Virus record (IMG/VR): IMGVR_UViG_3300025751_003710
DNA from: an uncultured virus (IMG/VR IMGVR_UViG_3300025751_003710)
Taxonomy: Duplodnaviria > Heunggongvirae > Uroviricota > Caudoviricetes
Direction: 5' to 3' (one strand)
DNA length: 64,000 nt
In this document: piece by piece, positions 6,020 to 50,624 of the stretch
Layout of the letters: every line of letters begins with the position of its first letter
Position numbering within the stretch: the first letter of the stretch is position 1
Notes under the pieces: generated by a model
Databases searched by the model: none
Told to the model about the DNA's origin: nothing
Seen by the model: only the letters and a program-made list of their open reading frames with translations
Program-made: the position numbers and the translations under genes

Positions 6020-6375
6020 ATGAGACTTATGATGAAGTAAAATCTAAGGAAACTGGAGGATCATCTGTGGAATGGAGTAACGAAGAAAAAGAAAATTCCA
6101 CAGCTAGATATGGTTGTAGTATTTTGGTTGAGAAAGCAACTTTAGAACAAGTTAAAGATCCATCTTGGCCAAATGATGCCAGATTAATTTGGTATATCGT
6201 TGATGGTATTGAGTATATGGATCTTACTAGATGTAGTAAAATATCTAAGTTGTTTGATATGTATTATGATAAGTATGGTAAAGGATCAATACAGAAAATT
6301 GATTTTGGTTATGGTACAGTGAATCCAAAACTCTGGGGGTATAAAGCACCCACCGAAAAGAAAAAGCGAAAGTGA
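6016..6375 (+). CDS. Conserved cyanophage hypothetical protein
   Basis: ATGA overlap with the upstream stop; FDMYYDKYG..GYGTVNPKLWG motif. Confidence 0.65.
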   Translation: MNETYDEVKSKETGGSSVEWSNEEKENSTARYGCSILVEKATLEQVKDPSWPNDARLIWYIVDGIEYMDLTRCSKISKLFDMYYDKYGKGSIQKIDFGYGTVNPKLWGYKAPTEKKKRK

Positions 6376-6435
6376 TTTCCCAATAACCCCGAAAAAAATT
6401 CGCCAAAATTTTTAACCTGTAAGGTTTTTTAAAAT

Positions 6436-6451
6436 TGTATCATAAGTTACA
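6436..6451 (+). promoter_or_regulatory. NtcA-type binding site (TGTA-N8-TACA)
   Basis: TGTATCATAAGTTACA, an exact match to the cyanobacterial NtcA palindrome, just upstream of a -35 box. Confidence 0.65.
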
Positions 6452-6458
6452 TAACTAC

Positions 6459-6487
6459 TTGACTACATAGTACATAGGAGTTATAAT
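6459..6487 (+). promoter_or_regulatory. Sigma70-type promoter
   Basis: TTGACT (6459) - 17 nt - TATAAT (6482); predicted start near 6494, just before aptamer 1. Confidence 0.8.
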
Positions 6488-6496
6488 ACTCTAGTA

Positions 6497-6729
6497 CGTT
6501 CATCCAATGTTAGCACTACTGCTGGCATTCACCCTTGCCCATCATAATGACGCTAATCCTTACGATTGGCACATGTCTTGTGAAAGGTGGTTACAACGAT
6601 CTACGGAAATCCGATTAGATCCAAACCTTGACCTTCGGTCGAAGTTGAGTCTAATCGCTTACCTCAAATCAAAAGTACCAGGTGAATGTAACGGAGTGTA
6701 TACATAGGACGCAAGTAAGTCGCGGAACG
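6497..6729 (+). ncRNA. Glutamine riboswitch-like aptamer 1 (glnA/Downstream-peptide family) with an ORF-sized P2 loop
   Basis: CGTTCATCC (6497)...GGACGCAAGTAAGTCGCGGAACG (6707-6729); P1 CGTTC/GAACG, P2 TCC/GGA. Confidence 0.6.
6507..6707 (+). CDS. Small signal-peptide-bearing two-Cys protein nested in aptamer 1
   Basis: 66 aa, hydrophobic N-terminus MLALLLAFTLA, C...VPGEC. Confidence 0.65.
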   Translation: MLALLLAFTLAHHNDANPYDWHMSCERWLQRSTEIRLDPNLDLRSKLSLIAYLKSKVPGECNGVYT

Positions 6730-6732
6730 GAG

Positions 6733-6920
6733 CGTTCATCCCATGCTAGAATTACTTTTATATTCAAGTATAACTTGTACTGATGCTGATGCATTATTGT
6801 TCAGGATCACAAAAAATAGATCAGAACTACCTCCACAAGTGGTGGTAGAATTGGTAGAGACCGTAAAGGAATCTGTACCTGAATGTGAATTCTACTGGGA
6901 CGCAAACGACTGAAGGAACG
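6733..6920 (+). ncRNA. Glutamine riboswitch-like aptamer 2 with an ORF-sized P2 loop
   Basis: CGTTCATCCC (6733)...GGGACGCAAACGACTGAAGGAACG (6897-6920); P2 extended by TAGAATT (6747) pairing with AATTCTA (6888). Confidence 0.6.
6743..6913 (+). CDS. Small two-Cys protein nested in aptamer 2 (56 aa, not in the ORF track)
   Basis: Manual translation: MLELLLYSSITCTDADALLFRITKNRSELPPQVVVELVETVKESVPECEFYWDAND*. Confidence 0.6.
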   Translation: MLELLLYSSITCTDADALLFRITKNRSELPPQVVVELVETVKESVPECEFYWDAND

Positions 6921-6985
6921 GGAAAAAACGGATCCAGCGAAAGCTGAGAAGGTTAATTTTCACCCATTCTTTTAGGAGACCTACA

Positions 6986-7150
6986 ATGAACACCCTCAAT
7001 CTCATTAAAAAGCAAATTAAAAAAGCAGCAGCACTGCACGACGCTCAAATCGCAATGACCACTTATCGTGGTGTCAAGTATGAGTGTAAGCAAGGTGCTG
7101 ATGAAGTACATGGTACTTTCTGCTATCGCGGTCACACTTATAATAAGTGA
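6986..7150 (+). CDS. DUF4278-like YRG peptide (54 aa, not in the ORF track)
   Basis: MNTLNLIKKQIKKAAALHDAQIAMTTYRGVKYECKQGADEVHGTFCYRGHTYNK*; two YRGxxY motifs; AGGAG SD. Confidence 0.75.
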   Translation: MNTLNLIKKQIKKAAALHDAQIAMTTYRGVKYECKQGADEVHGTFCYRGHTYNK

Positions 7151-7157
7151 GGCAATT

Positions 7158-7256
7158 ATGCAAGCATTATAAGTAGTATCATTAGGTTCTATTTTTAGTA
7201 TTGCATTTCTTGGTTTAGTTTACGGAAAGTTAACACTTTTACATAAGAGAGGTTAA
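7158..7256 (+). pseudogene. Small membrane peptide gene with an in-frame TAA at codon 5
   Basis: MQAL*VVSLGSIFSIAFLGLVYGKLTLLHKRG*; GAGG SD; the hydrophobic frame continues after the stop. Confidence 0.4.
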
Positions 7257-7273
7257 GAAACCTCTCTTTTTTT
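7245..7273 (+). terminator. Rho-independent terminator
   Basis: AGAGAGGTT-loop-AACCTCTCT followed by a T run. Confidence 0.8.
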
Positions 7274-7298
7274 GTACTTACATTAAAAAGTTACAATA

Positions 7299-7312
7299 GT
7301 ATATTAAGATAC
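7299..7312 (+). promoter_or_regulatory. Second NtcA-type site (GTA-N8-TAC)
   Basis: GTATATTAAGATAC, with TAGAAT (-10-like) at 7333, upstream of ORF 7414. Confidence 0.45.
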
Positions 7313-7413
7313 CAAAACATTACTACATAGAATAGAATTAAGGTTCTGCTTATGTTCTGAAATTTTTTCTTTATTATGATTTTCTAAATTAATGTTAAAA
7401 TTGCGTTGGAGGT

Positions 7414-50552: not shown

Positions 50553-50624
50553 GGGACTATCGCATATTGGTTAATGCCCACTGCTTATAACGGTGTGAAC
50601 TGGGTTCAATTCCCAGTAGTCCTA
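50553..50624 (+). tRNA. tRNA-Ile (anticodon UAU)
   Basis: Acceptor GGGACTA/TAGTCCT, anticodon arm CACTG-CTTATAA-CGGTG, T loop TTCAATT; CCA not encoded. Confidence 0.9.

Follow-up and report, generated by a model that had tools for sequence, protein, structure and literature searches.

Small reading frames nested in split glutamine-type aptamers of a regulatory cassette conserved among cyanomyoviruses

The glutamine riboswitches of cyanobacteria, described in Rfam as the families Glutamine (RF01739) and Glutamine-II (RF01704, the Downstream-peptide motif), are the closest known relatives of a small-gene locus found in an uncultured cyanophage (IMG/VR record IMGVR_UViG_3300025751_003710), of which one stretch of 64,000 nucleotides (nt), called the window here, has been analysed. 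The locus is a cassette conserved across many cyanomyoviruses and comprises an NtcA-type box, a sigma-70 promoter, two glutamine aptamers, a gene for a DUF4278-like peptide and a terminator. It represents a variant, not previously described, of the known glutamine riboswitch class, and its main feature is that each aptamer holds a small open reading frame (ORF) in the loop of its P1a hairpin.

The Glutamine family is known from marine cyanobacteria and from some cyanophages, ahead of DUF4278 genes as in the phage cassette. Features shared with it include the 5′ CGUUCA, the P1a hairpin, the ACG-AAG stretch, GAAGGAACG, a P1 helix formed from the two ends of the element, and tandem occurrence. 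The window differs by an ORF insert of 160-210 nt in P1a, by start and stop codons placed in the helix, by the absence of P2, and by escaping detection by the family model. With Glutamine-II it has in common CGUUCAYCC, the hairpin, GGNCGCA and GGAACGG, and it is to this family that compact forms of the first aptamer, found in other phages, give their best, sub-threshold, Rfam match. Here the differences are that the 3′ hairpin of the model would borrow bases from the next aptamer, and that an ORF lies within the motif and not downstream alone. Glutamine-II is described as typical of marine picocyanobacteria, where it lies upstream of short DUF4278-type ORFs (Klahn 2018).

Among host genes, Synechocystis gifB is reported to combine repression by NtcA with a glutamine riboswitch that switches on the synthesis of IF17 (PMC6212724, PMC7760959), and an inhibitory helix at its ribosome binding site is proposed to melt upon glutamine binding (PMC6212724). 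DUF4278 is described as the domain of IF17, a glutamine synthetase inactivating factor, and also of short IF17-like proteins encoded after glutamine riboswitches in marine picocyanobacteria (PMC6212724). The phage cassette follows the same order, its promoter having an NtcA site, its leader glutamine aptamers and its downstream gene a DUF4278 product, and for both systems the proposed switch is a helix linking the aptamer to the ribosome binding site. The cassette differs in being phage-borne and in having two aptamers and two extra small proteins nested in the leader; moreover its DUF4278-like downstream protein, ORF3, is much shorter, with 54 amino acids against 149 in IF17.

Genes placed inside structured RNAs are familiar from another context, since homing endonuclease ORFs sit in peripheral loops of group I introns. 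Both arrangements have a complete ORF in an RNA stem-loop, a fold that closes around it, and coexisting variants with and without the ORF. The phage element differs from the introns in being a predicted aptamer in a messenger RNA leader and not a ribozyme, and in that its ORFs are tiny and not endonuclease-like.

Two split aptamers and the reading frames inside them

The RNA order of the cassette is 5′ half-ORF1-3′ half, GAG linker, 5′ half-ORF2-3′ half, a leader of ~65 nt, and ORF3, with all three ORFs on the + strand. The corresponding features are the following:

6497-6510, + strand: 5′ half of aptamer 1, with P1 strand CGUUC (6497-6501), an A, and P1a strand UCC-A-AUGU, which includes the ORF1 start codon
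6507-6707, + strand: ORF1, 66 amino acids, Syn9 gp196 type, PHROG 6471, wholly within the P1a loop of aptamer 1
6701-6729, + strand: 3′ half of aptamer 1, with P1a strand ACAU-A-GGA, core CGCAAGUAAGUCGCG and P1 strand GAACG (6725-6729)
6730-6732, + strand: GAG linker between the aptamers, 3 nt, conserved among relatives
6733-6746, + strand: 5′ half of aptamer 2, with P1 strand CGUUC (6733-6737), an A, and P1a strand UCCCA running into the ORF2 start codon at 6743
6743-6913, + strand: ORF2, 56 amino acids, Syn9 gp197 type, PHROG 504, within the P1a loop of aptamer 2
6896-6920, + strand: 3′ half of aptamer 2, with P1a strand UGGGA, core CGCAAACGACUGAAG and P1 strand GAACG (6916-6920)
6986-7150, + strand: ORF3, 54 amino acids, double-YRG, Syn9 gp198 type, PHROG 545, DUF4278-like

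The counterparts of the three ORFs are labelled hypothetical in every isolate examined, and none of the three PHROG families has an assigned function.

Each aptamer is in two parts. The start codon of a small ORF comes immediately after the 5′ half, CGUUCAUCC, and the stop codon of the ORF so enclosed bears the 3′ half, GGACGCAAG...GGAACG. The 5′ word CGTTCATCC occurs exactly twice, at 6497 and 6733, as does the 3′ word GGACGCAA...GGAACG, at 6707-6729 and 6898-6920, with no further copy of either word elsewhere in the 110.8-kb record. Each 5′ word ends 1-2 nt ahead of an ATG, and the stop codon of the ORF that starts there coincides with, or closely follows, the first letters of the 3′ word; ORF1 fills the P1a loop of aptamer 1 and ORF2 that of aptamer 2. 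Both units hold P1 (CGUUC/GAACG), P1a and the glutamine-riboswitch stretches ACG-AAG and GAAGGAACG, the consensus words being those of the Rfam family models. An original prediction made from the letters of the sequence had recognised two aptamer-like units at this place; the conserved halves are indeed present twice each, but the units are not contiguous, each being split by a whole ORF, and they have no Rfam match. The nested ORFs themselves had been missed.

The codons at the ends of the nested ORFs belong to the RNA element as well. In the minimum-free-energy fold the 5′ half of aptamer 1 pairs with 6701-6729, where the 3′ strand of P1a overlaps the ORF1 stop codon TAG (6705-6707), while in aptamer 2 the stretch CUGAAG (6910-6915) contains the ORF2 stop codon UGA (6911-6913). 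The aptamer core itself, GAC GCA AAC GAC UGA, supplies the last codons of ORF2, whose C-terminus therefore reads W-D-A-N-D-stop; in other phages an unrelated-looking ORF of 61-64 amino acids in the same loop likewise ends in DAND. Together with G6729 the GAG linker makes GGAG, 10 nt ahead of the ORF2 start, and it can also be modelled as the loop of an alternative hairpin, GAACG-GAG-CGUUC.

Homologous loci were gathered in three sets, namely 80 from IMG/VR with ORF3 as query, 119 more with the inter-aptamer junction as query, and four isolate loci. The aptamer halves were recovered in nearly all of 73 distinct loci. In these relatives two units with the same flanks always precede ORF3, and it is the stretch between the halves that differs. 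In aptamer 1 it is either a hairpin of 12-32 nt, of many sequences, or an insert of ~200-233 nt with ORF1; aptamer 2 almost invariably has an ORF there, in a stretch of 153-192 nt, and rarely a 14-nt hairpin. The architectures of the 197 junction-holding loci, counted without deduplication, are distributed as follows:

aptamer 1 compact and aptamer 2 with ORF: 113 loci of 197
ORF in both aptamers: 61 loci of 197
both aptamers compact: 3 loci of 197
cut by the end of the locus: 20 loci of 197

The fully compact locus L043 consists of an NtcA box, a promoter, two aptamers of ~45 nt, a Shine-Dalgarno site, ORF3 and a terminator, and judged by its sequence it has the layout of a textbook tandem riboswitch. 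A three-way alignment shows the window to be equivalent to the compact forms plus two large inserts located exactly at the P1a loops. With Rfam gathering scores of 35 bits for Glutamine and 33 bits for Glutamine-II, the compact aptamer 2 of L043 and L045 reaches 36.8 bits against Glutamine (20 loci scanned), and the cassette passes the RF01739 cut-off only in this ORF-free form. Natural variants of this kind constitute ready-made experimental controls. Some other loci (L059, L063, L070, L078 and similar) have several hundred bases between an aptamer-1-like unit and aptamer 2.

The pairing of P1a across the ORFs was followed by counting pairs in a register anchored on the invariant flanks, a procedure adopted because the alignment gaps at start and stop codons made RNAalifold lose P1a; in 58 ORF1-bearing units it retained P1 and lost P1a for this reason. 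Among 49 distinct strand pairs of ORF-bearing aptamer 1 units, pairs 1-2 are invariant, and pair 3 is always matched, as C-G in 28 and as U-A in 21. Pair 4 is U-A in 16, C-G in 13 and A-U in two, with an A·A mismatch in 16 (the window included) and another mismatch in two. In aptamer 2, pair 4 is C-G in 87 of 122 distinct strand pairs, U-A in 25, U-G in seven, A-U in two and mismatched in one. In most aptamer 1 sequences the start codon AUG pairs with CAU or UAU immediately before the stop codon. Stop codons TAG, TGA and TAA accompany UCC-A, UCUC and UCUU ahead of the ATG, respectively, so that the identity of the stop codon tracks the bases before the start codon, the 3′ strand of P1a including the stop codon. 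The strands of aptamer 1 pair with their own partners at -7.97 kcal/mol on average and with permuted partners at -4.41 kcal/mol, and the corresponding values in aptamer 2 are -8.44 and -6.44 kcal/mol; none of 2000 permutations reaches the observed mean in either case.

Folding of the units points in the same direction. The base of P1a is present in the minimum-free-energy folds of 57 of 58 aptamer 1 and 111 of 148 aptamer 2 units, and P1 in those of all 58 aptamer 1 units, in folds of single units whose cut points favour end-to-end pairing. In the fold of 6494-6732 (z = -4.41) P1 and P1a are continued by a long rod that runs through ORF1, and 6730-6925 forms P1a and a rod (z = -3.38), against z = -2.03, -0.64 and -1.66 for three neighbouring control stretches of 239 nt.

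By their patterns of substitution ORF1 and ORF2 are real coding genes under purifying selection. The median ratio of nonsynonymous to synonymous substitution (dN/dS) is 0.19 for ORF1 (41 distinct sequences) and 0.22-0.29 for the three length classes of ORF2, with dS of ~1.0-1.4 and the third codon position the most variable. Except in a few loci where additional bases precede the ATG, the inserts vary in length by multiples of three. All types of nested ORF have a hydrophobic N-terminus and two conserved cysteines ~35 residues apart. Profile comparison of ORF1 with ORF2 gives a probability of 46% (E = 2e-4, cysteines aligned), that of two ORF2 types 61%, and that of ORF1 with the long ORF2 type 5%, values that are suggestive at best of a common origin, which is not claimed. 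A search of the ESM Atlas with the nested ORFs returned only clusters of viral hypothetical proteins and no other relatives.

Promoter, expression platform and a proposed switch

The elements surrounding the aptamers are the following:

6436-6451, + strand: NtcA-type palindrome TGTA-N8-TACA, TGTATCATAAGTTACA, centred at ~-50.5 from the predicted transcription start
6459-6487, + strand: sigma-70-type promoter TTGACT-17-TATAAT, matching at 11 of 12 positions
6921-6985, + strand: expression platform, in which GGG (6921-6923) pairs with CCC (6963-6965) around an optional hairpin (6934-6947)
7245-7276, + strand: intrinsic terminator, with a hairpin (7245-7268) of 10-bp stem and 4-nt loop followed by a T run

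The palindrome, the promoter and the terminator had all been announced by the original prediction and are found as described, as is a double-YRG peptide with a strong Shine-Dalgarno site: YRG occurs twice in ORF3, and AGGAG (6974-6978) stands 7 nt ahead of its ATG. From the spacing, transcription is predicted to start at ~6493-6496, 1-4 nt ahead of the first aptamer. Just before the NtcA-type box, at 6413-6434, a hairpin AACCU-GUA-AGGUU with a T run, similar to sequences in relatives, may act as a weak terminator closing the upstream gene.

Conservation of the box was followed in 51 distinct upstream sequences. GTA-N8-TAC lies 52-60 nt before the CGTTCA of aptamer 1 in 33 of them, with a variable N8, and TTGAC-type and TATAAT boxes occupy the same place in most homologous loci, so that the box is conserved at a fixed place, which, like the recovery of the aptamer halves in relatives, sets these features apart from chance. 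Five other upstream sequences (L003, L018, L019, L021, L051) have neither NtcA box nor sigma-70 boxes and carry a T4-late-type TATAAATA and then a different palindrome, TGTAGC-N4-GCTACA, ~20-40 nt before aptamer 1; because of these five loci the cassette seems to be driven by differing promoter classes among phages. About 13 of the 51 have no box of any kind.

NtcA-activated promoters of class II have GTA-N8-TAC near -41.5 and a TAN3T -10 box 20-24 nt downstream. The window holds both a palindrome and a TATAAT but not this geometry: with 31 nt between TAC and TATAAT and a predicted start at ~6494, the box is centred at ~-50.5. Six relatives come near the canonical arrangement, with 25 nt before TATAAT as counted in L049. 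Given the near-consensus promoter of the window, the box could repress or equally activate. NtcA is reported to repress gifA and gifB (PMC7760959), and NtcA sites are reported in all 16 cyanomyovirus genomes surveyed by Sullivan et al. 2010 (PMC3037559).

These features bear on the possibility that the locus is no more than a conventional phage operon of small genes, early or late, preceded by an NtcA-like palindrome to which NtcA does not bind. A near-consensus promoter needs no activator, and the position of the box centre at ~-50.5, the five relatives with the late-type TATAAATA and the ~13 sequences devoid of a box all agree with such an operon. The number of palindromes in the window is weak evidence by itself, because five sites stand against 1.86 expected. 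Against it speak the constant spacing of GTA-N8-TAC in 33 of 51 distinct sequences, whose N8 and flanks vary, and the six sequences close to canonical geometry, and this explanation is rather unlikely.

A terminator-like hairpin follows within 260 nt of ORF3 in 44 of 61 distinct homologous sequences. In four metatranscriptome runs from four studies, chosen together with this stretch, contigs extend across 6408-7249, whereas the stretches 6200-6375 and 7256-7387 have none. Two of the runs have contigs that stop at 7249, within the stem of the terminator, which is a weak hint of a 3′ end, since contigs cannot show RNA ends. In some contigs the conserved halves flank a different insert, as where 6745 is connected to 6898 through 185 other letters; a single sample therefore holds variants that differ in their nested ORFs.

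Downstream of aptamer 2, CUUUUAG (6969-6975), which overlaps the Shine-Dalgarno sequence of ORF3, can pair with CUGAAGG of the aptamer. In the RNAalifold structure of 34 homologous leaders the aptamer 2 CUGAAG pairs with YUUYAG, reaching the first two bases of AGGAG, and this helix is preserved in 32-34 of the 34 sequences, depending on the pair. It is also present in the fold of 6494-7000, where it is extended to CUGAAGGAA/UUCUUUUAG. The optional insert of the platform (6924-6958 in the window), with its CAGC-GAAA-GCUG hairpin, occurs in 11 of 44 distinct leaders and covaries between CAGC/GCUG and CUGC/GCAG. The first six bases of ORF3 (6986-6991, AUGAAC, encoding a conserved M-N) are the exact complement of GUUCAU at 6498-6503 and 6734-6739; this pairing appears in the fold of 6494-7000 and is possibly due to chance.

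ORF3 is likely homologous to DUF4278 on the strength of profile matches, outside formal Pfam membership. The DUF4278 match anticipated by the original prediction exists (PF14105, E = 3.3e-4), but its 21.4 bits lie under the cut-off of 25.3. A match at E ≤ 0.01 is found in 34 of 37 relatives of ORF3, the best at E = 1.9e-5. The ORF3 family profile retrieves 116 representatives at E ≤ 0.001 among 1.84 billion proteins, and of 26 distant matches scanned, 17 match DUF4278, one of them above the cut-off at 38.8 bits. Against solved chains the profile gives no match at E ≤ 1. Host glutamine synthetase is a possible target of the peptide. Several relatives have a fourth small ORF after ORF3 with TYRGVxY, which is a second YRG peptide (L001, 1354-1518; L003, 1343-1498); the window has only a start-less open frame at 7152-7256, ending ...KRG-stop just before the terminator, and this is probably a remnant.

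The switch mechanism most likely follows that of the host gifB riboswitch, by analogy. Host RNA polymerase would transcribe the cassette from the sigma-70-type promoter, with the NtcA-type box just upstream, down to the intrinsic terminator, and the transcript would begin directly with the two tandem aptamers, the whole of each ORF folding as a long rod that forms the P1a loop. When glutamine is scarce, the CUGAAG of aptamer 2 would pair with the Shine-Dalgarno region of ORF3 and keep it off, the anti-Shine-Dalgarno helix and the GAACG-GAG-CGUUC hairpin being the presumed structures of the unliganded state. Binding of glutamine would lock the aptamers and free the Shine-Dalgarno site, so that the DUF4278-like peptide would be made at high glutamine. 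The direction of control is thereby taken to be the same as in gifB.

The nested ORFs can hardly be translated without interfering with aptamer folding, and the reverse, because the start codons lie in P1a and the ORF2 stop codon in the anti-Shine-Dalgarno helix; ribosomes ending ORF2 would open that helix, since the stop codon sits inside it. A tentative extension, possible but more speculative, is a reciprocal switch in which glutamine clamps the ends of ORF1 and ORF2 in P1a and silences both while freeing the Shine-Dalgarno site of ORF3. At low glutamine, ribosomes would enter the nested ORFs and unzip the aptamers, which might be interlocked via the alternative GAACG-GAG-CGUUC hairpin and thus fold jointly. 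One leader RNA would then pick between two sets of small proteins according to the glutamine level of the host, and the identical aptamer halves would also allow the nested genes to be swapped by recombination.

Functional sensors or conserved flanks

The split aptamers are probably functional glutamine sensors that control ORF3. Several observations weigh against this reading. Neither RF01739 nor RF01704 matches the window, whether at gathering score or with the limit relaxed to E ≤ 10, in four isolates the homologous loci match no Rfam glutamine model at E ≤ 10, and the compact forms of aptamer 1 score 27.6-29.6 bits against Glutamine-II, under its cut-off (20 loci scanned). The P2 hairpin of the Rfam Glutamine consensus is absent from both phage aptamers. 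P1 is in the minimum-free-energy fold of just 18 of 148 aptamer 2 units, and in the fold of the whole leader (6494-7000) the two nearest P1 strands pair together as GAACG-GAG-CGUUC. No covariation comes from P1 and the cores, because both are invariant, and the variation in the CUGAAG/YUUYAG helix is one-sided, C or U opposite G, with no double compensatory change. All counts of relatives other than those of architecture refer to distinct sequences, not to independent evolutionary events, and the invariance of the junction in L090-L208 is so by construction, these loci having been fetched via an exact junction match. The box of the window is ~9 bp upstream of the canonical activating position at -41.5. 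The contigs represent presence in RNA libraries and neither prove transcription nor map transcript ends, the 5′-most one starting at 6408, upstream of the predicted start site. Finally, ORF3 stays under the Pfam cut-off, and a scan of 185,579 species genomes confirmed no relative, a weak result because the scan used two strict peptide patterns only. For the two-level control of nitrogen metabolism suggested by the original prediction, the conserved layout and its likeness to host gifB are retained, but the aptamers enclose ORFs, the box is not at -41.5 and ORF3 is sub-threshold.

The same conserved halves could be relics, or could serve another role, either as recombination anchors for the swapping of small ORF cassettes or as a start-stop clamp by which each small cistron is circularised, to make it stable or to couple its translation; glutamine would then be sensed by the compact forms alone, if by any. 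Different, seemingly unrelated ORFs share the same loop between identical flanks, metatranscriptome contigs link the flanks around other inserts, an endonuclease gene is annotated within the matched stretch in some isolates (H4, H20), and the split forms go undetected by Rfam. Yet the flanks are the glutamine-aptamer consensus CGUUCA, ACGNAAG and GGAACG and not an arbitrary sequence, and the halves and the P1a pairing are retained in ORF-bearing forms despite a synonymous divergence of ~1. In addition, the downstream gene is of the DUF4278 type that follows glutamine riboswitches in hosts, and recombination anchoring is compatible with glutamine sensing. An explanation by relics, anchors or clamps alone is therefore improbable. 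As an observation apart, in the isolates Sf-CH5 and Sf-FS3 the match falls into two parts, and a homing or HNH endonuclease is annotated at that point.

That ORF1 and ORF2 are untranslated, merely long structured extensions of P1a that happen to remain open, is very improbable: the lack of a clear Shine-Dalgarno site for either, their unusually structured RNAs and the constraint of RNA pairing on their ends would fit, but not dN/dS of 0.19-0.29, third positions that vary most, length variants in multiples of 3 nt, conserved start codons, stop codons and two cysteines, and full-length PHROG matches for both ORFs.

If the split aptamers do sense glutamine, a translated gene that lies inside an aptamer and contributes its start and stop codons to the helix would couple translation to metabolite sensing in a new manner. 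The cassette would also offer a handle on how cyanophages read, and perhaps reset, the nitrogen status of their hosts.

Distribution among cyanophages and minor observations

The 42-nt inter-aptamer junction matches 429 of 50,697 phage records, all of them cyanophages and at one place per record, 358 of the 429 at ≥95% identity. They include Syn9, S-IOM18 and S-CAM1, in which Rfam is silent at the locus. Glutamine riboswitches in phages have been reported as rare, in contrast to these 429 records: an Rfam-based survey of cyanophages lists glnA RNA for S-CREM1 and P-TIM68 (PMC9964418, Table S7). A very common phage regulatory RNA thus went unannotated because genes sit inside it. In the supplement of Weinberg et al. 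2010, Syn9 is listed only for another motif at a different position, and their main text makes no mention of ORFs inside the motif; their glnA alignment has very wide insert columns at P1a, which may hide earlier examples. Full-text literature searches on cyanophage glutamine riboswitches, phage DUF4278, inactivating factors and embedded ORFs returned no description of the cassette.

The exact 3′ half of aptamer 1 was also found in six contigs of assorted metagenome-assembled genomes (MAGs) and genomes (L209-L214), two of them ~190 kb long. They are filed under a Synechococcus MAG (194 kb), Nonlabens xiamenensis (188 kb), a Verrucomicrobiales MAG, an uncultured-bacterium MAG and a Euryarchaeota MAG (two contigs), and look like cyanophage DNA binned with cellular genomes, not host copies.

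At E ≤ 10, the window and the four isolate loci give only chance-level Rfam matches to unrelated families, mostly on the terminator, and the whole records of the four isolates give only weak matches to the Rfam glutamine families, away from this locus. The source of the window is a T4-like cyanomyovirus with Synechococcus phages as its closest records, and from their translations neighbouring ORFs look like ThyX and PhoH. The sole Rfam match in the window at gathering score is a tRNA gene at 50553-50624 (57.2 bits).

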